A DNA stretch of 51,423 nt from Deltaproteobacteria bacterium (GCA_016219065.1 JACRCK010000115.1:1-51423); one strand, 5' to 3'; positions 11,922 to 25,713 are shown, counted from the first letter of the stretch. Numbers and translations: made by a program. The notes: a model not told the origin generated them from the sequence alone.

Positions 11922-14381
11922 TTACCGCTGTCTGACGGCCGCCGTGGCACTCTTGCCGTATGAGGAGACCACATTGACCGCAGCATCGAAGGCTACCGGG
12001 GAATTGGCCCGGTTGAACGACCATTTGCCGTCTACCCCCACTGTGGCGGTGCCGATTACCGTTCCGGCCCCGGGTGTGGCCCCGGTGCGGATGGTCATGG
12101 TATTGGCGGGCGGCGACGGGGCCGTGGTTCTACCGGCCACCGTCCACTGACGCAACCGGAGGTTGTACTCGGCCCGGTCGGTGGTGATGACCTCGGCGTT
12201 GGTAATAATGGTGACAGTCACCGTGGCCACGTTGGAAATGACTCCCAGGGTGTTGCGGACCGTATAGGTGAAGGTGTCGGTCCCGGTAAAGGCCAGGTTG
12301 GTATGGGTATAGGCGATGGTGCCGTTCAGGACGTTGACCGAAACCGTGCCGTGGGCCGGCGGACTGGCCACCGTCAGGGAAGCGAAGTTAATGGTCCCGG
12401 TATCGTTGGCCAGCACCGGGATGATCACCGAGGCGCCCTGGGCCACGGTTCCGTTGTCATCCACGGCCATCGGGGCTGGGTTCAGCGGGTTGACGGTTAC
12501 GGTCACCGTGGCGGGAAGCGTGACCTGACCCAGGTTGTCCTGGACCGTGTAGGTGAAAGTGACCACTCCCGTAAAGGCCACGGCGGGGGTGAAGGTGATA
12601 TTCCCGGTGGCCAGGCTGACCGAGACGGCGCCGCTGGTCGGCGGGGTCACGATGGTTACCGTGGAAGGATCCAGGAAGTTGGGGACCGTGGCCGTATCAT
12701 TGGCCAGCACCGGGATGACCACGGCCACGTTCTGGAGGGTAGCGGCGGCGTCATTCACGGCCACGGGCAGGCCGGTAACCGTTACCCGGACGGTGGCGGT
12801 GTTGGAGGTCAGGGGCTGGTTATCGGCCACCGTGTAGGTAAAAATCACATCCCCGTTGAAACCGGGGAGGGAGGTGTAGGTGATGGTCCCGTCGGCATTG
12901 TCTACAGCGGTTCCGTTAGCGGGTTGAGCCGTCACGGTCACGCTCACCGGATCAAGGGCTCCCACCAGGGCCAGGTCGTTGGCCAGCACCGGGATGATCT
13001 TGGCCGCTCCGGCCGTGGCCAGGGCGCTGTCGTTGCGGGCCACCGGGGGCAGGGCCGCCGGCAGGGCCGGGCCTATGACGATCTTCTTGGAATCCGAGCC
13101 GCCCTTCGAAGAACTGACGTTGATTACGGCGGGCGGGGCGGGGGTCAGGAAATCCGCCGGGACGCCCGATGTCAAGGCTCCGGGAGTGAAGCCCACCAGG
13201 GTCAGATTGGGCGCCGGGGCCAGCAGGTCACTGGAGGCGGCGGTCACCGTCAGGTTGCCGGTGAAGGCGCTATAGTCGGCCTGGGTGATGATCACCTGGT
13301 CCACCAGGTTGACGGCGATGCTCGTGGGCGGGTTGTTGGGGTTGGCCACGGTATTGTCGGCCGTGATGGTCAGGGTGGCCGGGAGGGTGGTCGCATTGGA
13401 GATAGGAATATGGGCGAAGAACCGTCCGGTCCCGTCCCCGGTCAGGGGCCAAGTAGGTACTCCGACCCCGGTCACGGTCACGGCCGCGGTGGGCGCCGAG
13501 TTGGCGAAGACATCGACGTGCCCCACACTGGGGGTCGCGTTGGACCGGCCGTACGTGGCCCGGGTCACGGCCAGGGGGGTGGGCACGTCGCCGTTGAACA
13601 GGCGGCCGTTGAGGGTGAAGTCCGTGGTGGAAATATCCAGTCCGCCCGGTCCCTGCACCCGGAATTCATTGCCGAAAGGGCCGCCTGTGACCTTGGTGCT
13701 GGGCAAAGCCGGATCGACCAGGTATTTTTTGGTGGGGTTCAGGGTCGGGCTGCTGAAAAAGTCCAGCGGCGCCCCACCGGGGGCGGCCGAGGCCCGGAGA
13801 AACGGCCCGATGGCGCTGCCCAGAGCGCCGGTGAAATCACCGGGGGCCCCGATGCCGATATCGGAGGTGAAATTGATGGCCCGGATCCCGGGCGCGGTTA
13901 CATTGAAGGTATGGATGCCGTAGGGATGGGTAATGGTGTAGAGGCCGGCCGAAGGCGCATCCACCCGAATCCGCACCCGACCGAAAGAAACCTGCTCCCC
14001 GGGGATTACCGGCCCGGTGGCGAAGGCGCCCTCCAGACCAAGAACTAAATCGGCTGACCCCGTGCCCAGAGGAATGATGGCCCCGGCGGCAAACCAGAAG
14101 GCCTCCTCCGGGAAGTTGGTCGGGAAGAGGATGGGGGCCGTCGGGTTGGGGATGTCCGCCGGCAGTAGGAGACAGGCCCCGGCCGCCAGTTCCGCGGTGT
14201 TGGGGAGGCACAATTCCAGGGTCAGGGCATTGCTGTCCTGATACCAGAGCGGAAAGCCGTTGCCCGGGTCCGTGGGACCCACGGCTGTCAGGGCGGCCTG
14301 AACCGCCTGGCCGGAAAGGAGTAGCAGCGCCAACCCGATAAATAACAAAATCCATTTGTTAGTGTTACGTTGCGGCTTCAT
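11922..14381 (-). CDS. Secreted protein with three tandem ~95-aa cadherin-like/Ig-like repeats
   Basis: AGGAGG lies 7 nt upstream of ATG 14381. Signal MKPQRNTNKWILLFIGLALLLLSGQAVQA. Repeats have the form P.A..D.....(I/V)IPVLAND......DP.(S/T)V.....P..G(T/A)..V....G.I.(Y/F)T.....F.G...FTYTV. Confidence 0.8.
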   Translation of the reverse strand: MKPQRNTNKWILLFIGLALLLLSGQAVQAALTAVGPTDPGNGFPLWYQDSNALTLELCLPNTAELAAGACLLLPADIPNPTAPILFPTNFPEEAFWFAAGAIIPLGTGSADLVLGLEGAFATGPVIPGEQVSFGRVRIRVDAPSAGLYTITHPYGIHTFNVTAPGIRAINFTSDIGIGAPGDFTGALGSAIGPFLRASAAPGGAPLDFFSSPTLNPTKKYLVDPALPSTKVTGGPFGNEFRVQGPGGLDISTTDFTLNGRLFNGDVPTPLAVTRATYGRSNATPSVGHVDVFANSAPTAAVTVTGVGVPTWPLTGDGTGRFFAHIPISNATTLPATLTITADNTVANPNNPPTSIAVNLVDQVIITQADYSAFTGNLTVTAASSDLLAPAPNLTLVGFTPGALTSGVPADFLTPAPPAVINVSSSKGGSDSKKIVIGPALPAALPPVARNDSALATAGAAKIIPVLANDLALVGALDPVSVTVTAQPANGTAVDNADGTITYTSLPGFNGDVIFTYTVADNQPLTSNTATVRVTVTGLPVAVNDAAATLQNVAVVIPVLANDTATVPNFLDPSTVTIVTPPTSGAVSVSLATGNITFTPAVAFTGVVTFTYTVQDNLGQVTLPATVTVTVNPLNPAPMAVDDNGTVAQGASVIIPVLANDTGTINFASLTVASPPAHGTVSVNVLNGTIAYTHTNLAFTGTDTFTYTVRNTLGVISNVATVTVTIITNAEVITTDRAEYNLRLRQWTVAGRTTAPSPPANTMTIRTGATPGAGTVIGTATVGVDGKWSFNRANSPVAFDAAVNVVSSYGKSATAAVRQR

Positions 14382-14397
14382 TGAATAATCCTCCTGA

Positions 14398-15396
14398 CTA
14401 AAAGTCGGCGTCCCGGAAAAGGTTTGGCATAAAGACATAGGTCTTGCCGGGAGTTATCGCGTTCAAGGCATCCGTGGTCCCGGAGTTCCGGGCCGTCCAG
14501 GTCACTCCGTCCGGCGAAGTGACCACTCCGCCCAGGGCCCCGACCGCTGCAAAAGTCCCGCTGTTGAAGGTCACGGAGAAAAGATCGGTGGCCAGGTTGG
14601 AGATCCGGTCGGTCCAATCAGTGCCGTTGGGGGAGGTCTTGATCGTTCCGTTGGTCCCCACGGCTAGGAAGAGGCCCCGGTCGAAATGGACGCTCCAGAG
14701 TAATTCACCCAGATTGGGGGCGGTGGTCTGCTCCAGGGTCCAGATGTTTCCGTCGGTCGAGGACAGGACGGTTTCCGCATCGCCGGTGGCCACGAATTTC
14801 CCTTGACCGAAGGTCAGGCCGGTCATTAATTCGGTGGTTACCAGGCCCGAGTCGGCAACTGGGTTCCAGTTGATCCCGTCGGGCGATCTTAAAATGGTCC
14901 CGAGATTGCCAATAGCCACAAAGGCTCCGTTGCCATGCTTGACCCCGAACAGGTTGTTGGTGGTCCCCGAAAACTGATTGGTCCAATTGATCCCGTCCGG
15001 GGAGGTCACGATGGTTCCATCAGAACCGACGGCCACAAAATGTCCTCCCCCGAAGGTTATGTTGAACAGCGTGCTGATGGCGACGTTGGAAATCTGAGGG
15101 GTCCAGGTGACTCCATCCGGAGAGGTGACTACCATACCCTGGTCCCCCACGGCCACGATCAGTCCGGCGCCACGGGTGGCCCCCCATAAAAACACGGGGG
15201 AATTGGAGATCTGGGGGACCCAGACAGATCCCTGGGGGGAGGTTAGAATCCTGCCTCCAGGCGCAACGGTGTCATTCCCCACAGCCACGAAGGTGGCGGT
15301 TTGGGCCAAGGCCGGACCGGCCAGGGGCAGGTCCAGCAGGGCTGCAATAAAAAACAACCAGAGGGCAGGGCCTGTTCTTTTCATGAATGTTGACAT
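14398..15396 (-). CDS. Secreted 7-bladed beta-propeller with Asp-box (BNR) repeats
   Basis: Signal peptide ..LAGPALAQT. There are seven repeats of F(V/A)A(V/I)G..G.(I/V).TSPDG..W(T/N), which fits the S-x-D-x-G-x-T-W Asp box. Confidence 0.8.
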   Translation of the reverse strand: MSTFMKRTGPALWLFFIAALLDLPLAGPALAQTATFVAVGNDTVAPGGRILTSPQGSVWVPQISNSPVFLWGATRGAGLIVAVGDQGMVVTSPDGVTWTPQISNVAISTLFNITFGGGHFVAVGSDGTIVTSPDGINWTNQFSGTTNNLFGVKHGNGAFVAIGNLGTILRSPDGINWNPVADSGLVTTELMTGLTFGQGKFVATGDAETVLSSTDGNIWTLEQTTAPNLGELLWSVHFDRGLFLAVGTNGTIKTSPNGTDWTDRISNLATDLFSVTFNSGTFAAVGALGGVVTSPDGVTWTARNSGTTDALNAITPGKTYVFMPNLFRDADF

Positions 15397-15480: not shown

Positions 15481-17589
15481 TCAGGGCAGAAAGGGATCGA
15501 GTCCCAAAAAAGTCTGGATTGGCGGAAGGCCGGCGGCCGGACGGCCCCCGGTGCCCACGGCCGGCAGTTCCAGCATCTGGTCCGGCAGTCCCGGCAGTCC
15601 CTCATCATGGCCGTTGGGAATAAACAACTGGGGATGATCGAAAGGTGCCCGTTCCTGGCGGACCCGCTCGTCGGTTAGGGTCAGCAGGAAGGCCACCAGC
15701 GCCCTTTTCCGACTGAGATTGCCCTGGATGAACCCGATTTCAGCGACGAAAGGGTTTAAATCATCTACATTTTCCTGGGGAAAGTTCCCGCCCCGGGCAT
15801 AGAATTCCACCACCTGCATCAGGGTGGCCGCCCCCCCATTATGGAAATAGGGCCCGGTCAGTTCCACGTTGCGCAATCCCGGAGTCTTGAAGGCCCCGTT
15901 CACAGCCACCCGATTCAAATTACAGGGCGCCGGGAATGGCTGGCATCCGGGCAAGTCCGGAATATACGGCAGCAGATCGTCAGGGACCACGGTACCGGTG
16001 GTGTTTTTTTCCAGGCCCCGCAGGGAATAAGAAAGGGGCCGGCCGAAGGGGTCGTTGCCGCCCCGGCCTTTATCTTCGGTGGTCGGGGTGGCGGCCACAT
16101 TGTAGAAGCCTACGTCATAGAAGGCCTCGCCCTGGACCATGCCCATCCGTTCCACCAACCCCTCCACGCCCAGCAGGGCGGTCGAAGCGTTGGTCAAAAC
16201 CGGGCCGCCGTGGCACTGGATGCAGCGACCCTCGTTCATGAAGATATTCAGCCCCTCCTGTTCCTGGGGGGTGAAAGTGGCCCTTCCCTCCTGAACCCTG
16301 TCAAATTTCGAGTCGTTGGCTACCAGGGTGGCCTGGTAGAGCTGCAGGGCCACCCCAAAAAAGAAGGCGAAATTGGCTTCCATCTGGGTGTATTGACCGG
16401 CGCCCAGGGGACCCTTGGCCGCCTTGGAAATCCGGGCCGGGCCCACGAGCCTGGCAAAGGTCCGAGGATTATCGAGGGTAGGCCCTTGAATTTTCGGGGC
16501 CCCCAGGGTAACCACCTGGTTCGAATTCCAATATTTGGACGGAAAGGCTTCCTGAATCATCCGGGCATAGGTGGTCCTCAAACCGGGCATCCCGGATACC
16601 CGGCTTCCCAGGGCTTTGGTCCTTATAGACAGGGGACCAAGAACGCTGTCCTGGGGGTGGATCACCTGGCGCCCCAATGGCTGCAGGGAAAGGAGCTTGC
16701 GCCCAACCTCGGGCCAGGTCCGGCCCTGGAAAGACATTTCAAAGTCGCTCAACACCGGACCAACGGCCTGGGAGGCCAGGCTGGCGAAATCCAGCCGCAG
16801 TTTGACCGGCTTTAACTGACCATCGCCGTTGACCAGTATGGTAGCCTGGTCGTCCGCCGACCCGAAGGGGTTCTGCCCGTTGAAGACCCGGTGGGCTCGC
16901 CCGTCCCAGAAATTGTGGAGATTGAACACGGCGTTGATCACCGAGGGGGTGTTGCGGGGCTCCACCCGGCGGACATTGACCCCGCCCACCTGGAAGACCG
17001 GATCGGCCAGGGGAGACCCCTGGTCCAAACGGCTGCCTTTGGTGATACCCGTGTACAGGACCAAGGGCACCCCTTGGGAGGAGACAATGTCATTGGTGTT
17101 GGCGCTGACTCCCGAACTTTGTCGGTCCGAGGGGGAAAAACGCTGATGGAAGGGGAAATCCGCGGCCTTCAGGGTAGAATTCGGCCTGGCCTTCTGGAAG
17201 GTCTGATCACCGCCCAGCAATCCGGGACCGATCTGGTTTTTGGCCCGGTTGTCCGCCCCAGCGTGAAAATGGCAGGAAGCGCAGGCGGTTTCCCCGTCGC
17301 TGCCCACCTGCAGGTCCCAAAACAGGGCCTTGCCCAGGCGGATGGCCGCGGCTTTATCGCGGACGTAATTGTCCAGCTCCGGCGGTTCGGGAACGGCCAC
17401 GGTCTTGAGCGATGGGGGAACGGGGATGACCTGGGCCCGGGCGACCGGGCTGAAGTTAAACAGGCCGGCGGGCGACAACAGGGAACCGATCAACAGCCAA
17501 GCCATTCTCTTTCGCCAGGGCTTCGGCCGGGAAGGACCGTTGTTTTTGATTTCGTTGTTCATGATGGGGCTGAAGCCTCCTCTACCCAT
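15481..17589 (-). CDS. Di-haem cytochrome c peroxidase/MauG-family protein, oversized (702 aa)
   Basis: Haem motifs CASCH (res 103-107) and CIQCH (res 456-460). CCP signature PSVINAVFNLHNFWDGRA. Signal-like ..RKRMAWLLIGSLLSPAGLF..ARA. The ATG overlaps the upstream TGA (TGATG). Confidence 0.85.
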   Translation of the reverse strand: MGRGGFSPIMNNEIKNNGPSRPKPWRKRMAWLLIGSLLSPAGLFNFSPVARAQVIPVPPSLKTVAVPEPPELDNYVRDKAAAIRLGKALFWDLQVGSDGETACASCHFHAGADNRAKNQIGPGLLGGDQTFQKARPNSTLKAADFPFHQRFSPSDRQSSGVSANTNDIVSSQGVPLVLYTGITKGSRLDQGSPLADPVFQVGGVNVRRVEPRNTPSVINAVFNLHNFWDGRAHRVFNGQNPFGSADDQATILVNGDGQLKPVKLRLDFASLASQAVGPVLSDFEMSFQGRTWPEVGRKLLSLQPLGRQVIHPQDSVLGPLSIRTKALGSRVSGMPGLRTTYARMIQEAFPSKYWNSNQVVTLGAPKIQGPTLDNPRTFARLVGPARISKAAKGPLGAGQYTQMEANFAFFFGVALQLYQATLVANDSKFDRVQEGRATFTPQEQEGLNIFMNEGRCIQCHGGPVLTNASTALLGVEGLVERMGMVQGEAFYDVGFYNVAATPTTEDKGRGGNDPFGRPLSYSLRGLEKNTTGTVVPDDLLPYIPDLPGCQPFPAPCNLNRVAVNGAFKTPGLRNVELTGPYFHNGGAATLMQVVEFYARGGNFPQENVDDLNPFVAEIGFIQGNLSRKRALVAFLLTLTDERVRQERAPFDHPQLFIPNGHDEGLPGLPDQMLELPAVGTGGRPAAGLPPIQTFLGLDPFLP

Positions 17590-18938
17590 CAGGGAACGAC
17601 ATGAATAAAGGTCTCGGCGATCCCCATCTGTTCCTGGTTGATGTGATGATGGAATTCCACCGCTACTCGGTGGCTGCCGATGTCTCGGGCCGTGGGTTTG
17701 ATCAGCAGATCGAAACGACGGGCCGCGGTCAGCTCAAAGGGTACCCCGGCGGCGATGGTGAAGGGCCGGCTGTATTTAGTATACGGGTCCTGACCCAACA
17801 CCCGCCCGTCCATGGCGATGACCTCGGCGTTCAGGCCGCTGATGGTGTATTTATTCAAGGAATACGCGGCGCAGAGCAAGCGGACCAGCAGGGTCTGCCC
17901 TACCCGGACCGTGGCGGCCACGCCGGAGTCCACCTGATTTCCGGGCAGGTTGCGACTCCAGGGATGAGGGCGGCCGGTAATCAGGAAATAGCGGGGGCTG
18001 AAATTATCAAAATGGGGGTTCTGGGGATCATTGTAGGCCATGAGGGTAGTTCCCGGAAGCGGGAATCCGGCGCTGTGGTCGGCCGCTCCGATGATGTGCC
18101 AGCGGGGGTCCACGTCATCCGAGACCCAGATTGCTTCCACGTCGTAGGGCACGATGTCGTTTCCCCGGCGGACCCACCCGGGTCCCCCGTCCACGAAGGG
18201 ACCGCCCTTTCCCGGCGGGTCGATGATCAGCATGCCGTACATGCCCATTTCAAAGTGGAGCAGCGTGTTTTTATGGCAGTGGTAAAAATAAGTCCCGGCG
18301 GCGCCGGCCAGCATCTGATAAGTGTAACCGGCTCCGCCGCTGACTTCGAAAGACAGTTTTCCCACGCCGTCGTTCATGGCTGTGGGCTCCATACCGTGCC
18401 AGTGGATGGTGTGGGTATTTTTGTGGCGGGTTAAATGGCCGTGAAAGATCTCCCCCTCCACCACCCGGATGGTAGAGGAGGGAAAAGTACGCACCAAGGG
18501 GGTAGTGCTGTCAAAAAAACCCCAAAACTCCACTAATTGTCCATCGGGCATCTGGACCATCAGGCCGGAGTAAACTTCCGGATTGAAAATTCGGTCGGGG
18601 TTAAGGAGATCGGGTGTCGCCGGGCTGCCTTGGGGCACGTCGGAGGCGAAGGCCTGGAAATGCATCGGCTCAAAGAGGTTTTTCGGGTCCCGGGACAGGA
18701 CGATGGCGGGGTTTCCCAGCCGCAGGGAGCCGGCGCGGACCTGCGGTGCTGTGGACCGAACGATGGAGGTCGGGCTATTGCTGACGGGCCCCGTCGGGGA
18801 AACACCGGGAGCGGGGATCGATTGAACCCGGATGTTGTTCATTGATCCTCCGGTGAATTTGGATCGAACATTTTTTCTTTTAAGGTTGAGGGGTTCCGCC
18901 GAGTTCCGGTTTTTTCTTCTTAATATAGATATTGGCAT
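17589..18938 (-). CDS. Multicopper oxidase B. It has no signal peptide and keeps type-1 Cu plus half of the trinuclear ligands in its first cupredoxin domain.
   Basis: HTIHWHG (nt 18393-18413). HCHKNTLLHFEMGM (nt 18240-18281). AAGGAG lies 8 nt upstream of ATG 18938 (the ORF opens at TTG 18944). The N-terminal ~110 aa are polar with no hydrophobic stretch. Confidence 0.85.
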   Translation of the reverse strand: MPISILRRKNRNSAEPLNLKRKNVRSKFTGGSMNNIRVQSIPAPGVSPTGPVSNSPTSIVRSTAPQVRAGSLRLGNPAIVLSRDPKNLFEPMHFQAFASDVPQGSPATPDLLNPDRIFNPEVYSGLMVQMPDGQLVEFWGFFDSTTPLVRTFPSSTIRVVEGEIFHGHLTRHKNTHTIHWHGMEPTAMNDGVGKLSFEVSGGAGYTYQMLAGAAGTYFYHCHKNTLLHFEMGMYGMLIIDPPGKGGPFVDGGPGWVRRGNDIVPYDVEAIWVSDDVDPRWHIIGAADHSAGFPLPGTTLMAYNDPQNPHFDNFSPRYFLITGRPHPWSRNLPGNQVDSGVAATVRVGQTLLVRLLCAAYSLNKYTISGLNAEVIAMDGRVLGQDPYTKYSRPFTIAAGVPFELTAARRFDLLIKPTARDIGSHRVAVEFHHHINQEQMGIAETFIHVVP

Positions 18939-18971
18939 GATCAATTCTCCTTGTTTCGGGCCACCGGCAGG

Positions 18972-20156
18972 TTAAACCAGGGTCCCCGTAAATTCGATAT
19001 GGACGATCATTCCCTGGGGGTAATTTCCGCCCGCCGCCGCCTGAGAAAGCTCCTGGTGGCTATGCATGGGATAGGCGATGGGAAAGCCCCTACGGATCCC
19101 TCCGGTAATCGGGTCTGGACCCGGATGGCGGGGGTTGCCGTCAAAGCCCTCCTCGGAGGTGCCGTTCTTCAGGCGGGCCCAGGTATCGGGTGGGATGTCC
19201 GGGGGGGGCATCATGGGGTACAGGACATCCTTGCACTCCCCGGGCAGCATGGTCCAGGTGTCGATCCAGAAGACGTCCTCCTGGACTTCCCCCTCCACCG
19301 ACAGCAGATAGCCATGATTGGCGTGGATGTGAGGGGAATGGGTGTCCATACCCACATGGACGTTGCGGATCAACCGCGGTTCACCGGCCATCCCCACCAG
19401 GGAGTTGTCGTGATCCTCGGCGCTGAAGAAGCCGCTTTTGCCGTTGATGGTGAAGTACCGGGGCAGGAAATTGCGTTCAAAGTCTTCTACATTGATCTCC
19501 ACCCCCTGGCGGGCCAGTTCATTGTAGTTGGGATCGATTTCACTGAAAACCCAGAGGTTGGTCCGTTCCGGCCTCCAGGGCTCACCCGGCGGCGGAAAGT
19601 GGGCGGAATTGCCCAGATCGTTGAACAACTGCTGGACCGCCGGGGTAGGGTTCCGGTAGGGGGTCAGGGCGTTCCCGGCCACGGGAATCCGGGGCATGAC
19701 GATCAAGACGCCGTGGAGCCCCAGGACCCGGTTGACCGGACTGGCCACCGGGTCTTGATAGATATAGGTGCCGGGGGGAGGAGCCGGAAAAGCGATAGTC
19801 CGGTTTTCCCCGGGAGGGATCGGCCCGGTACTGACCAGAAAATCGCCCTCGATGTCGCCCAGAACGGCGAACCCATGGTTTTTCCCCAGGGAATTGGTAA
19901 TCCTGATCCGCAGCAGGTCCCCATCCGTGGCGAATATAACAGGTCCCGGGATGCTCGGGCCGGTGATCGGGCCGGCATAGGCATAAGAATAGACTTGCGT
20001 CAGGTCCACCATTTCGTGCCAGACCTCGGTGATATCCAGGTTGATCAATTCCCGGTCGGCCAGGGCTTCGGTAACCTTAAAGATGGGTGGAATACCGCTG
20101 ATCGCCCCGGCGGTGATCGCCGACAATCCCAATTTGATAAAATCTCTTCTGTTCAT
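18972..20156 (-). CDS. Multicopper oxidase A. It has a Tat leader, its first domain lacks Cu ligands, and its second domain has HxxHxH + HSH (no type-1 Cys).
   Basis: GGAGG RBS. Tat leader MNRRDFIKLGLSAITAGA. HSPHIH (nt 19323-19340). HSH (nt 19056-19064). Domain 1 reads NHGFAVLG and GTYIYQDP where HxHG and HxH are expected. Confidence 0.85.
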   Translation of the reverse strand: MNRRDFIKLGLSAITAGAISGIPPIFKVTEALADRELINLDITEVWHEMVDLTQVYSYAYAGPITGPSIPGPVIFATDGDLLRIRITNSLGKNHGFAVLGDIEGDFLVSTGPIPPGENRTIAFPAPPPGTYIYQDPVASPVNRVLGLHGVLIVMPRIPVAGNALTPYRNPTPAVQQLFNDLGNSAHFPPPGEPWRPERTNLWVFSEIDPNYNELARQGVEINVEDFERNFLPRYFTINGKSGFFSAEDHDNSLVGMAGEPRLIRNVHVGMDTHSPHIHANHGYLLSVEGEVQEDVFWIDTWTMLPGECKDVLYPMMPPPDIPPDTWARLKNGTSEEGFDGNPRHPGPDPITGGIRRGFPIAYPMHSHQELSQAAAGGNYPQGMIVHIEFTGTLV

Positions 20157-20480
20157 TTTTCCTCCACTGACTGACTGTCCATTAAATATTTGTATTGAGG
20201 ATCATACAAATCATGTTGTTTACTCGTATCATTTTTATGTACAATGATAATAAGTGTTAATTTTTTTTTAAATAGGTTAAATTACGTATTTTTTATATAA
20301 TTATTACCCATAGTAGTTGTTAGTAGGTTAACATCCTGTTTGGAAAATCATACCCGGGCTATTTGAAAAATTTTTTAATCCGGATCCAAGCAGGATCCTT
20401 TACATGGCCGGATGAACATGATACCTTGGTAATGATATTGATCTAAAAATCAAATTCACGGGTTGCGCAGGCCGACCACC

Positions 20481-21137
20481 ATGGTTGATAAAAAAAAGCT
20501 TTTGATTGTTGACGACCACACGATCCTGCGGGAAGGATTGAAAGCCCTTTTGTTAACCAGTACAGATCTGGAAATCGTGGGGGAAGCCGATGACGGCCGC
20601 AAAGCCGTCCATCTAGCGGAGACCTTGTCGCCGGATTTGATCCTGATGGATTTATCCATGCCCCGCATGGACGGTATGGAAGCCGTTCGGGAGATAAAAA
20701 AGAAATGGCCGGATATCAAGGTGTTGGCCCTGACAGTCCATAAAACCGAGGAATATGTCCTGATGACCCTCCAGGCCGGGGTGGACGGATACCTGTTGAA
20801 GGATGCCACCCATCAGGAAATGATGACCGCGGTCCGCAGTGTTTTGGTGGGAAAACGCTACCTAAGCCCGGGAATATCGGAAAAGGTGATCGAGGGCTAC
20901 CTGAACGGGAAACAGACGGTCAAGACCCGGAGTTCCTGGGACAGTCTGACTTCCCGGGAACGGGAAGTCCTGAAGTTGATCGGCGAAGGATATAAGAACA
21001 AAGGGATCGCCGACCAGTTGAACATCAGTCCGAAAACGGTGGAGAAACACCGGGCCAATTTAATGGAAAAGCTTAATCTGCATAATACCTCGGAATTGAC
21101 GGCCTACGCCATCGAGAAGGGGCTGGTGGTCAAATAA
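20481..21137 (+). CDS. NarL/FixJ-type response regulator (receiver + LuxR HTH)
   Basis: LLIVDDH, DLILMDLSMPRMDG, LTSREREVLKLIGEGYKNKGIADQLNISPKTVEKHRANLMEKL. The ORF opens at TTG 20463, and ATG 20481 gives MVDKKKLLIVDDH. Confidence 0.9.
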   Translation: MVDKKKLLIVDDHTILREGLKALLLTSTDLEIVGEADDGRKAVHLAETLSPDLILMDLSMPRMDGMEAVREIKKKWPDIKVLALTVHKTEEYVLMTLQAGVDGYLLKDATHQEMMTAVRSVLVGKRYLSPGISEKVIEGYLNGKQTVKTRSSWDSLTSREREVLKLIGEGYKNKGIADQLNISPKTVEKHRANLMEKLNLHNTSELTAYAIEKGLVVK

Positions 21138-21236: not shown

Positions 21237-23384
21237 TTATCCAGCATCTGCATTAATCAACGGCCAGGTCACTTTGATCTGTGTTCCCTGACCCGCCTTG
21301 GATAAGATCTGAAAGGTTCCGCCGGACAATTCCGCCCGCTCCCGCATGCCGGGCAGGCCCAGACCCCGGGCTTCAGACCCCTTGGCCGTTACCCGTTTGA
21401 CCGGAAAGCCCCGCCCGTTATCCTTGATTTCCAGGTCCAGCCGGTGGAAATTCCGACTCAACTTCAACCGGACCCGGCTGGCCTCGCTGTGCTTGGCAAT
21501 GTTGTTCAGGGACTCCTGAATGATGCGAAAGATCACCGTCTTCAGGTTTTCAGGACACTGGTCCTCCAAAAGATCGATATCTTGATCGATCTGGATCCCG
21601 GGATAGGTTTTCTGGAATTCCCGGGTAAACCAGGCAATGGTCGCCAGAATTCCCAAATCGTCGAGCATGCTCGGCCGTAAGTCCATGCAGATACGCCGGA
21701 TTTCTTCAATGACTTCCTGGACTATCGGCACGATGGATTGCAGCCCCCGGGCGTCGGCCGGCCGTTCAGCAACGGCCTGGCCGAGCAGGGCGTTTTCCAC
21801 CCGGTATTTGATGGCGCTCAAATATTGCCCCACCCCGTCGTGCAGCTCTTTGGCGATTCGTTTCCGTTCGGTTTCCTGGGCCAACAGGACCTGGGAGGAA
21901 AGAAGACGCAATCGTTTTTCCGATTCCTGAAGGGCCAGCTCTGATTTTTTAATGGCGCTGATGTCCCGGGCTTCGGCGATCAACAGTCCCACCTTTGGCG
22001 GGTCATTTAAAACTAAAACCGGTTTAATGGAAAAATCGATCCATTGCCGGGCCCCCGGGGACAGGGAGACCGGTATTTCGAAGCGGACGAACTTACCCCG
22101 GGCGGCTGCGGAGATGCCTTTTTTAACTCTTTCCTGGAGGCTCCGCGGGACCTTTTTTTGGAGTTGGAGAAGATGTTTCCCAATGATATCTTGGTATTTC
22201 AGGTCCAGAAAGTCCAGGGTGGCCTGGTTCACTTCCAGTACCGTCCCATCCGGTTTCAACAGCCCGATCAATTGAAAAGTTTGGTTGAAAATGGCCCGGA
22301 ACTTCTGTTCGCTCTGTCCCAGGGCGCCCAGGGCCGCCTGCCGGGCTTCCATTTCTACCCGGAGTCGGGTATTGACCTGCAGCAGTTCGGCCGTCCGGTC
22401 TTGAACCTGCTGTTCCAGTCGGGACTGGGCCTGCCGGAGGGCGACCTCGGCCTTTTTACGTTCGGTGATGTCCCGGATGATGGCGGTGAAGTGCACCCCC
22501 CCGCCGGACTCCCACTCGGACAGGGACAATTCGATCGGGATTTCATGGCCGTCCCGGTGGCGGCCGGTGGCCTCTAGGGTCCGGCCCACCAGATGATAAA
22601 TCCCGGTGACCCGCACCCTTTCCATAGCCGCACAATGCCTTTCCTGAAAGCGGTCAGGGATGATGACCGTAACCGGCTGGCCGAGGGCTTCGGCCTCGGA
22701 GTATCCGAAAAGAGAAGCGGCCCGGCCGTTCCAGAAGAGGATCAGGCCCTGGCTGTCGGCGGAAACAATGGCGTCGGTAGCGGTTTGGGCCACGGCCCGG
22801 AAATGCTCCTCGCTGTTGCGGAGCAGTTGCAGGTTGCGGCTGTTGCAAAGGGCCACCCCCGCCAGTTCACCGAAGAGGGCGGCGGTCTGGGCGTCGGTTT
22901 CCGAGAAACCGCCGGGTTTATTGGCCAGACCGATCAGGCCGACGGTTTTTTCCCGAATTTTTAAAGGCGCAAAAAGGACGTTTTCCAGCCGGGCATGTTC
23001 CCGGGGCAGGAATTTTGCCCAAGGGCTTCGGGGAAAATCGTTGTGATAGATCACCCGTCCCGTTTGATAGGCTTCGGCCAGCAGCCCCCGGATCGACATG
23101 GGCAGAGAACGATCTACGGCACAAGGCAGTCCCTCGGCATCCAGGAAAAGCAGGTCATTCTCCAGCCCTCCTTTGGACAGGAGGGCCACATAGCCGGCGG
23201 TGGTGCCCAGGAGTTTTTTTAAGATCCGGTAGATGACGGCGGCGGTTTCCTTGAAATCGTCGTGGGCCAGGATTTGCCGGGAGCCTTCCTGAAGGGCCAG
23301 GATGATGGCCTGTGACCCGGGTTCCCGGGGCCGCCCGGGCGGAGAAACGGGGTTGGTCTGGTCGGCTTGGTTCATAAAAAACAA
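21237..23384 (-). CDS. Cytoplasmic sensor histidine kinase: GAF, two PAS, HisKA_3, HATPase_c
   Basis: No TM segments. PAS-like blocks (..SADSQGLILFWNGRAASLFGY.., ..GTVLEVNQATLDFL..). H-box ERKRIAKELHDGVGQ. ATPase N/G boxes IIQESLNNIAKH, DNGRGF, GLGLPGMRERA. Confidence 0.9.
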   Translation of the reverse strand: MFFMNQADQTNPVSPPGRPREPGSQAIILALQEGSRQILAHDDFKETAAVIYRILKKLLGTTAGYVALLSKGGLENDLLFLDAEGLPCAVDRSLPMSIRGLLAEAYQTGRVIYHNDFPRSPWAKFLPREHARLENVLFAPLKIREKTVGLIGLANKPGGFSETDAQTAALFGELAGVALCNSRNLQLLRNSEEHFRAVAQTATDAIVSADSQGLILFWNGRAASLFGYSEAEALGQPVTVIIPDRFQERHCAAMERVRVTGIYHLVGRTLEATGRHRDGHEIPIELSLSEWESGGGVHFTAIIRDITERKKAEVALRQAQSRLEQQVQDRTAELLQVNTRLRVEMEARQAALGALGQSEQKFRAIFNQTFQLIGLLKPDGTVLEVNQATLDFLDLKYQDIIGKHLLQLQKKVPRSLQERVKKGISAAARGKFVRFEIPVSLSPGARQWIDFSIKPVLVLNDPPKVGLLIAEARDISAIKKSELALQESEKRLRLLSSQVLLAQETERKRIAKELHDGVGQYLSAIKYRVENALLGQAVAERPADARGLQSIVPIVQEVIEEIRRICMDLRPSMLDDLGILATIAWFTREFQKTYPGIQIDQDIDLLEDQCPENLKTVIFRIIQESLNNIAKHSEASRVRLKLSRNFHRLDLEIKDNGRGFPVKRVTAKGSEARGLGLPGMRERAELSGGTFQILSKAGQGTQIKVTWPLINADAG

Positions 23385-23537: not shown

Positions 23538-24791
23538 TTAAAATTCCTTCCAGGAGATCATCTTGTAGCCGGTAACGGCCCCGCCGCCGCCGCCTTGATT
23601 TTTCAGCGCCTCGTCATAGTGAATGCTGCCCTGCCCGGTGACGGTAATATTCTTGGAAATAACCGAACCGAAAATATCCGCCTGTCCGGTAAAGGTGGCG
23701 TTGGCTTTGGGGGCATAGATAGCGGCGTATAAGACGGATTGGCCGGCCAACTTGAGGTCCTGACAGCTCTCCGTTCCGTAAACGATTACTTTTTCTGCTT
23801 TTTGATTCAGGTTGACGATGCCCTGGCCGTCCATGTCGATGTTGCCGTTGACGTACATGGTCAGGGAGGCACCGTCGTTGATCTTCAGTTTCGACTGCCC
23901 CGCGGTTTTAAAATTTCCGTCCACATAAAGGGTCACGTTGCCGTTGATCGTGACCGTGTTTTGCCCGGACAACTGGATGCTGGAGACCCGGTATTCACCG
24001 CCCGAAATGGTCATGGTGCCGGACAAGGTCAGGGGGATGCCCCCGCCCGGGTCCTGCTTGGGCGTCATGTCTTTCTTCTCGGAAGCCACGGTTTTCTCGC
24101 CGAAGACCTGGGCCTGGCCGGAAGTGGTCACGTCGGTGGGTGCCCCTTCGGGACCGACGATGGCATTGCCGTAGATATCGGACTGCCCTATCAGGTCGAT
24201 GACTCCTGAACCCTTGGCGTTGGTACCGATGTTTCCGTTGCGGCGGATGCCTTCGGCGGTCCAGGCGCCGGCATTGGAGTCAAAGCTGTCCACGTAACCC
24301 TGGCCCTTCATGGCCACCCAGTCATCCCCGAAAATCCCGCAATCGAAGGTGGAACCGGAATGTTTCAACTGAATGACCACCTTGATCTTTCTTTCCACTC
24401 CGTTGGCCCCGGACGAATAACCCACGGAATCGATCTGGTAATAAGGTTTGCCAGTGCCGTCATAAGCAATGGCCCTGTTGCCGGCATTGTCTGTTCGGGT
24501 CACATAAGAGACGGTAAAACTGTTGGAAAAGCCCGTAGTGCTGCCGGACTGGTTCCAGCCGGCCTGCCCGTTGCCGACGATGGTTTTATTCAGGATTTGG
24601 CGGGCGGCGTCGGCAATGCCGGCGTCGGCATTCTGCAAGGCGTCGGCGGCGTAACGGTAATTGGCGGATATTTTTTTGCCTGTGTTGGAGCTGAACAGGG
24701 CGGTTGATCCGATGAGCGACAGGAGCATGAGCAACACCAGGATCGTGACCAGGGCCATTCCTTGCTGATTTTTGATGAGGATCTTTTTCAT
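23538..24791 (-). CDS. pilX: PilX-like minor pilin fused to a large beta-helix-like C-terminal domain
   Basis: AGGAGG lies 8 nt upstream of ATG 24791. MKKILIKNQQGMALVTILVLLMLLSLIGSTALFSS. The C-terminal half has repetitive G/N/V-rich strands (TVTINGNVTLYVDGNF..INDGASLTMYVNGNIDM..). Confidence 0.75.
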   Translation of the reverse strand: MKKILIKNQQGMALVTILVLLMLLSLIGSTALFSSNTGKKISANYRYAADALQNADAGIADAARQILNKTIVGNGQAGWNQSGSTTGFSNSFTVSYVTRTDNAGNRAIAYDGTGKPYYQIDSVGYSSGANGVERKIKVVIQLKHSGSTFDCGIFGDDWVAMKGQGYVDSFDSNAGAWTAEGIRRNGNIGTNAKGSGVIDLIGQSDIYGNAIVGPEGAPTDVTTSGQAQVFGEKTVASEKKDMTPKQDPGGGIPLTLSGTMTISGGEYRVSSIQLSGQNTVTINGNVTLYVDGNFKTAGQSKLKINDGASLTMYVNGNIDMDGQGIVNLNQKAEKVIVYGTESCQDLKLAGQSVLYAAIYAPKANATFTGQADIFGSVISKNITVTGQGSIHYDEALKNQGGGGGAVTGYKMISWKEF

Positions 24792-24831
24792 ACAGCGGCC
24801 TCCTATCAGAGTATTTTTTGAAAATCGGGTT

Positions 24832-25713
24832 TTATTTGATATTCTTCGGCGCCACGCTGACATTGAATATTTTTTGCCGATAGCCGCTGTTGGTCCCATA
24901 GTCCGAGTCGGGGGCCGCGGTCCGGGCCGTCAGGGTCAGGTTGGTTCTATTGCCGTTCGGCACGGCCTGCAGGTTGGTGATGTCCGCGGCCACGGACACA
25001 AAAGGCCCGCTGTTTTCTTTTCGCATTAAAACCGGAGGGGATGCCGAAGTGAAGAGCTCGTAGGAGATGACACTGATTTTACCCACTTCCGACCATTGGC
25101 CGTGATTTTTGATCAGCCCCTGGTTGCCGGACACGGCCGGATTGGTATCGATAGTCAACTGGCTGCCGGTCACCGCCATCACTTTGGCGTTCTCGAAATC
25201 CTCTCCCACATAGATCACGTCCCCCACTGTGTAAAGAGCTGCGGTCTCCGAGCCACCCAGATTTAAAGTAATGGTGGTACTTCCCGAGCCAGCGGCTGTA
25301 GTCAGCTTGGTCGGGTTGGTGCCTTCCCCCAGTGCCCCGATGATCGTAACAGCATCGGGGTTGGTCCCGCTGCCCTGGGTGATTTTCACCGGATAATCAC
25401 CGGCGCTCAGGGAGACCGGGACGGGCGCCGGATTGGCCGGTAAAAATCCGCTGGGGATCATCTGGGCCACCGCACCCAGGGTTCCCCCGCTCAGGGCGAC
25501 TTTGAGTCCGGCAGACCGGGCCTCGCGACCGATGACCTCCGTGCAACCCAGGATGTTCTGGTTGAGGGCCAGGACCTGGTCCTGAACGGAAAAGGTCTTC
25601 TGGTTGAAGGCAAAGATGCTGTACATGGACCCCAAGATCAGGATCAATAGGCCCATGGTGACCAGGAGTTCAACGAGGCTGAAACCTCTAGGCGGCACGG
25701 CTGGACGTTTCAT
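24832..25713 (-). CDS. pilW: PilW-like minor pilin (prepilin N-terminal methylation motif)
   Basis: MKRPAVPPRG/FSLVELLVTMGLLILILG. Confidence 0.75.
   Translation of the reverse strand: MKRPAVPPRGFSLVELLVTMGLLILILGSMYSIFAFNQKTFSVQDQVLALNQNILGCTEVIGREARSAGLKVALSGGTLGAVAQMIPSGFLPANPAPVPVSLSAGDYPVKITQGSGTNPDAVTIIGALGEGTNPTKLTTAAGSGSTTITLNLGGSETAALYTVGDVIYVGEDFENAKVMAVTGSQLTIDTNPAVSGNQGLIKNHGQWSEVGKISVISYELFTSASPPVLMRKENSGPFVSVAADITNLQAVPNGNRTNLTLTARTAAPDSDYGTNSGYRQKIFNVSVAPKNIK

Follow-up and report, generated by a model that had tools for sequence, protein, structure and literature searches.

Two adjacent multicopper oxidase genes with complementary copper half-sites: a probable heterodimeric oxidase exported through a single twin-arginine signal

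Multicopper oxidases (MCOs) are cupredoxin-domain enzymes that bind four coppers and reduce O2 to water. In the two-domain members the trinuclear copper cluster (TNC) is built from residues of two protomers, and in the type-C members the type-1 copper site lies in the N-terminal domain (PMC13151041). The solved two-domain MCOs and NirK enzymes are all trimers in which six domains close a ring, and in the two-domain trimers the cluster lies where domain 2 of one unit meets domain 1 of the following unit (PMC13151041). The type-C enzymes (3g5w; the metagenomic mgLAC, 2zwn) have two cupredoxin domains per chain and a TNC made of four His of domain 1 and four His of the neighbour's domain 2; they are homotrimers with both half-sites on every chain, and hold three TNCs and three type-1 sites. 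Here we describe two adjacent genes, MCO-A and MCO-B (A and B below), located in a 51,423-nt stretch of DNA from Deltaproteobacteria bacterium (GCA_016219065.1, JACRCK010000115.1:1-51423; 'the window', from whose first nucleotide all positions are counted). Each product again has two cupredoxin domains, but the half-sites are divided over two paralogous chains, each pair can hold only a single type-1 site and a single TNC, and only one of the chains carries an export signal. In every characterised MCO known to us, the TNC belongs to a single chain, as in the three- and six-domain enzymes, or is shared by identical chains, as in the two-domain homotrimers.

In structure, the models of natural A-B fusion proteins described below are matched best by six-domain MCOs (ceruloplasmin; MnxG of the Bacillus Mnx complex, PDB 9bxa). 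These have a ring-like cupredoxin array in which most inter-unit interfaces have lost the TNC and one is left; Mnx is, in addition, a multi-subunit MCO complex. They are single chains with the TNC between the first and the last domain (1 and 6), whereas A and B have two domains per chain (four in the fusions), the resemblance spans four of the six domains, and the TNC is predicted between domains 2 and 3 of the four. The Mnx subunits MnxE and MnxF are not MCO-like and supply no TNC ligands.

The asymmetry of export signals has parallels among enzymes that use the twin-arginine translocation (Tat) pathway. In Tat hitch-hiking, a signal-less subunit is exported only when bound to a partner with a twin-arginine leader. 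As in the A-B pair, one subunit alone bears the leader in the [NiFe] hydrogenase HybO/HybC and in DmsA/DmsB; these differ from A-B in being Ni-Fe, molybdopterin or Fe-S enzymes whose cofactor is loaded in the cytoplasm. CueO and the other MCOs known to be exported by Tat consist of one chain. Heterodimeric MCOs are described among fungal laccases (POXA3 and the 'novel laccases' with a small subunit; PMC10443355). Unlike in A-B, the large subunit of these enzymes is a complete three-domain laccase and the small subunit is a non-MCO protein with no copper ligands. Apart from them, no heteromeric, split or Tat hitch-hiking bacterial MCO was found in the full-text literature, whose coverage leaves out most subscription journals; the initial reading of the window from its nucleotides (the sequence-only reading, which this analysis follows up) had likewise known of no described heteromeric bacterial MCO with this architecture.

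Both open reading frames (ORFs) are present on the minus strand at the coordinates first proposed. MCO-A (18972-20156) encodes a Tat-signal-bearing protein of 394 aa with two cupredoxin domains and is preceded by a GGAGG ribosome-binding site. MCO-B (17589-18938) encodes a signal-less protein of 449 aa, also with two cupredoxin domains, and its start ATG has an AAGGAG ribosome-binding site in front of it; in a public gene call (P0121) the start is Met33, which gives 417 aa. Pfam Cu-oxidase_3 exceeds its gathering cut-off of 21 bits in both, at residues 68-156 of A (33 bits) and 153-244 of B (47.3 bits; Cu-oxidase_2 matches B too), and the fusion models show four beta-rich domains that match MCO structures, so that both chains have the fold of the MCO superfamily. 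Profile alignment of A with B (hhalign probability 99.2%, E = 7.6e-20) identifies them as clear paralogues at the sequence level. About 495 homologues of MCO-A were found. Among 1.84 billion representatives the A family makes up 96 clusters at 50% identity with E<=1e-30, which makes it moderate-sized yet real.

Domain 1 of MCO-A (residues 68-156; 19689-19955, minus strand) has none of the canonical type-1 and TNC ligands, either in the alignment with B or in the family alignments, which bears out the initial observation that the HxHG and HxH copper motifs are missing there. In the BLASTP alignment of the two proteins A Y133-Q-D-P136 stands opposite B Y219-H-C-H222, and since Q134-D135-P136 thus falls against H220-C221-H222, A has no HCH motif in this domain. 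One His, H94, is left in the HxHG loop. In most members of the family the only conserved residues of the domain are H94, D135 and H148; D135 occupies the former position of the type-1 Cys, and the alignments conflict over H94, making it the equivalent either of the type-1 His or of the second His of HxHG. The three residues may be a remnant or a novel mononuclear site. The trio (19713-19877, minus strand) reads H-D-H in ~100 of 129 loci and R-E-H/Y in ~7.

Domain 2 of MCO-A presents the opposite picture. Its first HxH motif, H273-S-P-H276-I-H278 (19323-19340, minus strand), and its second, H365-S-H367 (19056-19064, minus strand), each supply two TNC His, with H276 and H278 present in 118 of 119 homologues and H365 and H367 in 116 of 119; both motifs had been recognised from the window. 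H273, at the position equivalent to the type-1 His, varies freely among loci. Between H365 and H367 about half of the A-B pairs have Cys, the others Asp, Gly, Ser, Leu, Phe, Asn or Pro. The sequence-only reading had deduced the absence of a type-1 thiolate from the Ser of HSH. The absence of a type-1 site from A stands, and it holds in spite of the Cys in many relatives because the remaining type-1 ligands are variable or missing in the family; the Ser itself is a local detail, confined to MCO-A of the window and its closest relatives, while the other relatives mostly have Cys. When the A family profile is set against mgLAC 2zwn, HSPHIHANH corresponds to HAMHSHGH, MH(C/S)H to FHDH, and the tail AGGNYPQG to AGGKHPGG. 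By these alignments, A has a type-C domain 2 of the ordinary kind, which holds four TNC His (H276, H278, H365, H367) and no type-1 site.

In MCO-B the conserved ligands are in domain 1. The motif H176-T-I-H179-W-H181-G (18393-18413, minus strand) holds one type-1 His and two TNC His, each found in at least 117 of 118 homologues; H220-C221-H222-x5-H228-x4-M233 (18240-18281, minus strand) holds two TNC His, the type-1 Cys, a type-1 His and the axial Met, all invariant or nearly so. Arithmetic on the translations returns exactly the positions that had been given for these two motifs and for the two HxH motifs of A. The best PDB sequence match of B is the type-C two-domain MCO 3g5w from Nitrosomonas europaea, which agrees residue for residue at HTIHWHG and HCH..H..M; because the motifs align in this way, domain 1 of B is seen to carry, as first proposed, a full type-1 site (H176, C221, H228, M233) together with four TNC His (H179, H181, H220, H222). 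The type-C placing of type-1 copper in the N-terminal domain is thus present in B and missing in A (Q-D-P for H-C-H). Domain 2 of B (residues ~262-449; 17592-18155, minus strand) is a cupredoxin domain, beta-rich in the fusion model, with no conserved copper ligands and no conserved His in the B-family alignments. Its FHHHINQEQM, which had been judged degenerate, is indeed unconserved: only 65 of 118 sequences have His at position 431, and Trp predominates at position 432. The other type-C feature, both half-sites on every chain, is therefore absent: A lacks the domain-1 half-site and B the domain-2 half-site. As for the homotrimer, the quaternary structure of type C, the pairing of the genes and the fusions favour a hetero-assembly in its place.

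Complementarity of this kind extends over the whole family. Among 119 A and 118 B homologues the ligand residues named above are present in 116-118 sequences, and the positions that lack a ligand in the window lack it family-wide, so that no complete set is found in either protein. We collected 129 full-length A-B pairs from 160 loci in other genomes and metagenomes; 128 of them have the full set of eight TNC His, and all 129 have the type-1 His-Cys-His of B, with an axial Met in 73 and an axial Leu in 56. The ligand set that defines an MCO, one type-1 site and eight His in four HxH motifs, is supplied by A and B jointly and by neither chain alone. The initial proposal of four plus four His and one type-1 site thus agrees with the family alignments and with the pairs, and since the pattern recurs in hundreds of homologues it is not due to chance.

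Two other identities were considered and rejected. In NirK, a type-1 site in domain 1 is accompanied by a type-2 copper whose ligands are two His from domain 1 and one from domain 2 of the neighbour. The PDB entries that match A with the best scores are NirK enzymes; the NCBIfam NirK model, however, gives 36 bits for A and 23 bits for B against a cut-off of 296, domain 1 of A has no type-1 ligands, and the conserved pattern is the eight-His pattern of MCOs. The MCO-like proteins that have lost their copper ligands (FtsP/SufI) do not fit either, as the four-His half-site is strictly conserved in A as well as in B, and the type-1 site of B is complete.

To see how regularly the genes occur together, GTDB species genomes were scanned with A and metagenome contigs with B, and the best 80 loci of each scan were taken. 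Starting from A, we found B directly downstream on the same strand in 77 of 80 loci; the other three contigs end <600 nt past A, which makes the score 77/77 among evaluable loci. Starting from B, we found A directly upstream in 71 of 80 loci; nine contigs begin within ~270 nt of B, which makes it 71/71. A solitary A or B, which would have spoken against mutual dependence, was not seen in any of these 77 and 71 evaluable loci. Pairwise distances of A and B correlate across loci (r = 0.74, against a permutation maximum of 0.09). Genomes with several copies (two to four A-B pairs) always duplicate the genes as pairs; Skermanella aerolata has four pairs (L067, L068, L074 and L077), and tandem pairs, in some cases on a single contig, occur in L039, L047 and L119. 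At one locus (L009, 11303-12230) the B homologue is broken into two frames near residue 160, which points to a frameshift (pseudogene) or else to a faulty assembly.

The pair is found in Desulfobacterota, in Brocadia and other Planctomycetota, and in Nitrospirota, Chloroflexota, Acidobacteriota, Armatimonadota, Actinomycetota, Myxococcota, Bdellovibrionota and Alphaproteobacteria. RefSeq annotation of Indioceanicola profundi labels A as 'hypothetical protein' and B as 'multicopper oxidase domain-containing protein', and no NCBIfam model specific for either A or B was found. A lead from Brocadia, the multicopper-oxidase/HAO protein of a 2026 preprint, was ruled out: it is a fusion of HAO with a type-B two-domain MCO, and so not the protein described here.

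In a small number of genomes the two genes are one. Single-chain proteins in the order Tat leader-A-B were found in two clades, one with P0197 (782 aa) and its relatives P0241-P0248, and the other with P0251-P0258 (713-1109 aa), which are only 37-39% identical to P0197; fused loci make up 2 of 146 evaluable loci. Both clades keep the ligand pattern of the separate proteins, and the order of fusion puts domain 2 of A directly before domain 1 of B, i.e. it joins the two domains with complementary His quartets. The AlphaFold2 models were made for the natural fusions P0197 and P0251, using alignments (A3 and A5) with the A and B rows on the correct halves. Both are compact four-domain proteins, with predicted local distance difference test (pLDDT) 87.6 and predicted template modelling score (pTM) 0.89 for P0197, whose four domains are beta-rich, and pLDDT 85.1 and pTM 0.89 for P0251; given a pTM of 0.89 for chains of 700-780 residues, the four domains are confidently placed relative to each other. 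In Foldseek searches of both models against PDB, proteins of the six-domain MCO fold (MnxG, ceruloplasmin, factors V and VIII) ranked first, with TMq 0.50-0.56 along the full length of the chain; three-domain MCOs reached a TMq of only 0.25-0.31. The four domains of the modelled fusions thus resemble four consecutive domains of a six-domain ring.

The fusions also bear on the question of how B leaves the cytoplasm. MCO-A begins with a twin-arginine signal peptide, MNRRDFIKLG...TEALA/D (residues 1-33, cleavage before D; 20058-20156, minus strand), whose R3 and R4 are shared by all 30 sequences of alignment A1. By a simple rule (an RR motif plus a hydrophobic region), a Tat leader like the one noticed in the window is present in 102 of 117 full-length A homologues, and the 15 without such a call look like start-codon miscalls. 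No signal peptide or hydrophobic N-terminus was found in any of 116 B homologues. MCO-B of the window instead has the polar N-terminal extension of ~110 aa that the sequence-only reading had described (18609-18938, minus strand), with no hydrophobic segment (maximal 15-residue hydropathy of 0.81). This extension is common only to the closest relatives (P0122-P0127); most B homologues begin ~40 aa ahead of domain 1. Several signal-less B homologues carry C-terminal domains of extracellular type: cell-wall-binding repeats (P0151 and P0156), dockerin (P0168), and Big_9/cadherin and related domains (P0139, P0163 and P0175). Because signal-less B homologues have such domains and because the fusions set B behind the Tat leader of A, there is good indirect evidence that B leaves the cytoplasm together with A.

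We consider it likely that A and B form a heterodimeric four-domain oxidase with one type-1 site, one TNC at the interface between domain 2 of A and domain 1 of B, and export by Tat hitch-hiking. In this scheme a type-C two-domain ancestor would have been duplicated to give A and B, each retaining one half of the inter-subunit copper site. A and B would assemble 1:1 into an enzyme of four cupredoxin domains, in which domain 1 of B would give the type-1 copper and its four His, and domain 2 of A the remaining four. The single cluster would thus be formed at the same kind of interface as the cluster-bearing one of the homotrimeric two-domain MCOs. Substrate electrons would enter at the type-1 copper of B and pass via the His-Cys-His bridge to the cluster, where O2 would be reduced to water. 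The complex would form in the cytoplasm, probably copper-free, and would be exported by Tat through the sole signal peptide, that of A, with B carried along. A complex of the unfused proteins, its 1:1 stoichiometry, the cluster geometry, the reduction of O2 and the co-export are all what we infer from the ligands, the pairing and the fusions.

Several observations weigh against this scheme or qualify its support. With the best 80 loci taken per scan, distant solitary homologues could lie beyond the coverage. The motif patterns used in the locus scans included some of the His that were then counted; the counts free of this bias are those of B His in A-seeded loci and of A His in B-seeded loci only. 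The single exception among the 129 pairs, L002 (contig CAVQSS010000015.1, protein P0124), is a close relative (its A is 72% identical to that of the window) and has Tyr at the position of B H181, which may be genuine or may stem from an error in sequencing. The match to six-domain proteins is coarse (TMq ~0.5, root-mean-square deviation 8-11 Å), and one A-B pair cannot close a ring of six cupredoxin domains, which leaves the ring open or the stoichiometry different. A large number of the hosts live as strict anaerobes (Desulfobaccales, Brocadia, Syntrophobacteraceae, Geobacter), for which reason O2 is less obvious as the physiological oxidant.

The question of the ring leads to an assembly in which the copper site is likewise shared by A and B, with proportions other than 1:1: a six-domain ring closed by another two-domain unit beside A-B (A2B or AB2) or a stacked (AB)n, some of whose interfaces would be copper-free. 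The trimeric rings of all solved two-domain MCOs and NirK (PMC13151041) are a precedent, the fusion models cover four of six ring domains and leave a gap, and the conserved H94, D135 and H148 in domain 1 of A could serve another interface. Still, one A always comes with one B, multi-copy genomes included, and no third MCO-like gene is conserved near the A-B pairs. The fusions of two clades are modelled as compact monomers with the pTM given above, and domain 2 of B has no conserved ligands from which a second site could be made. On balance we regard an assembly other than 1:1 as unlikely, though worth keeping in mind.

The anaerobic hosts, Brocadia among them, raise a different point, which concerns function. 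A and B could form a heteromeric copper protein whose eight-His site does not reduce O2 in vivo, serving instead to reduce nitrite or another oxidant, or to oxidise or handle Cu(I), Fe(II) or Mn(II) in anoxic habitats. The top-scoring NirK matches of A would fit such a role, as would a gene for a di-haem peroxidase/MauG-like protein, which belongs to the operon in the window and in roughly one locus out of four. We find it doubtful, however, since the ligands that define an MCO (eight His, the HCH bridge and a complete type-1 site) are conserved, the type-2 pattern of NirK is not the conserved one, and the motifs match type-C MCOs position for position. The pair is also present in aerobes (Skermanella, Hyphomonadaceae, Caulobacteraceae, Salinilacustrithrix), and metal-oxidising MCOs still reduce O2.

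That A and B act separately, A as an exported protein that binds copper or serves as a scaffold, in the manner of the copper-free MCO-like FtsP/SufI, and B as a cytoplasmic blue-copper protein, with shared regulation explaining their adjacency, would agree with the lack of a signal peptide on B, the 'hypothetical protein' label of A and the lack of a specific family model for either gene, but is very improbable, because half-sites that are incomplete in either protein are kept in nearly all pairs, natural fusions place B behind the Tat leader of A, B homologues have extracellular anchor domains and the pairing is strict in both search directions.

Turning from the heterodimer to its genomic setting, MCO-A and MCO-B appear to be the first genes of a minus-strand operon, followed in order by genes for a 702-aa di-haem peroxidase/MauG-like protein, a 332-aa propeller-like protein and an 838-aa Big_9/cadherin-repeat protein. 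Upstream of MCO-A is an AT-rich region (20157-20460, minus strand) with promoter-like hexamers for the operon, four sigma-70-like matches at 20447-20231, which are consensus matches only. Across the gap between the two MCO genes (18939-18974, minus strand) the frame is shared, with TAA and 11 codons in between; a fusion made by stop read-through was considered and rejected, as the same frame is seen in 51 of 146 loci, the level expected by chance. The operon is flanked by genes for a LuxR-type response regulator (20463-21137, plus strand) and a GAF-PAS-HisKA_3 sensor kinase (21237-23384, minus strand); a kinase of the same family is upstream of A in the closest relatives (L001 and L002), and regulator and kinase may be dedicated to the A-B operon. 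The genes at 23538-25713 (minus strand) look like type IV pilus minor-pilin-like genes (PilX_N + DUF7305) and have no relation to A-B. Long antisense ORFs (18951-20174, 17601-18434 and 12303-14048, all on the plus strand) are shadow ORFs typical of GC-rich DNA and not genes.

The 702-aa gene (15481-17589, minus strand), whose start overlaps the stop of MCO-B, belongs to the di-haem cytochrome c peroxidase (CCP)/MauG superfamily: it matches Pfam CCP_MauG and, weakly, the NCBIfam MbnH and MauG models, and its PDB sequence matches are di-haem peroxidases. A gene of this kind adjoins A-B in 20 of 80 genome loci by tblastn (22 by clustering of ORFs), and because it adjoins in only 20 of 80 loci it is placed outside the A-B core. 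The 838-aa Big_9/cadherin protein (11922-14438, minus strand) has an uncharacterised N-terminal domain (about residues 55-282) with no match in Pfam, NCBIfam or PDB sequences. Di-haem CCP/MauG/MbnH homologues beside A-B nearly always come with at least one protein bearing this N-terminal domain; both are seen in L002, L004, L007, L024, L054-L056, L064, L069, L072 and L075. By analogy, this pairing recalls the enzyme-substrate pairs of MbnH/MbnP type.

Another neighbour characterises about eight alphaproteobacterial loci (L062, L065-L068, L074, L077 and L078), where a gene for an SCO1/SenC copper chaperone lies directly 3' of B. These genes have a CxxxC motif and His-rich stretches (Pfam SCO1-SenC, E = 1.8e-33 and 3.4e-21), and a neighbour of this family is consistent with a copper enzyme matured outside the cytoplasm. 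The Indioceanicola pair has no accessory gene. As the accessory genes differ among lineages and Indioceanicola has none, gene content points to the A-B pair itself as the core unit.

Taken as a whole, we lean towards regarding A-B as a widespread, previously undescribed architectural class of MCOs: an obligate heterodimer of degenerate two-domain paralogues, whose four cupredoxin domains would hold a single type-1 copper and, at the hetero-interface, a single TNC, exported by Tat hitch-hiking, and possibly with a novel His/Asp/His site in domain 1 of A at the former type-1 position. It would be a living example of the subfunctionalisation step that has been proposed on the way from homotrimeric two-domain MCOs to asymmetric multi-domain MCOs with a single cluster. 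If this is true, the placing of a TNC between two different chains that depend on each other would be new as a quaternary arrangement, and the family would provide a natural intermediate for the evolution of multi-domain MCOs, in which duplication and site loss have long been discussed. The enzyme would also be the first MCO proposed for Tat hitch-hiking. Either gene expressed alone would then yield an inactive protein, and counts of laccase-like genes in genome surveys would be wrong for A-B. The family is common in anaerobes of sediment and groundwater, anammox bacteria included, and the substrate of the enzyme could bear on oxygen defence or metal cycling there.

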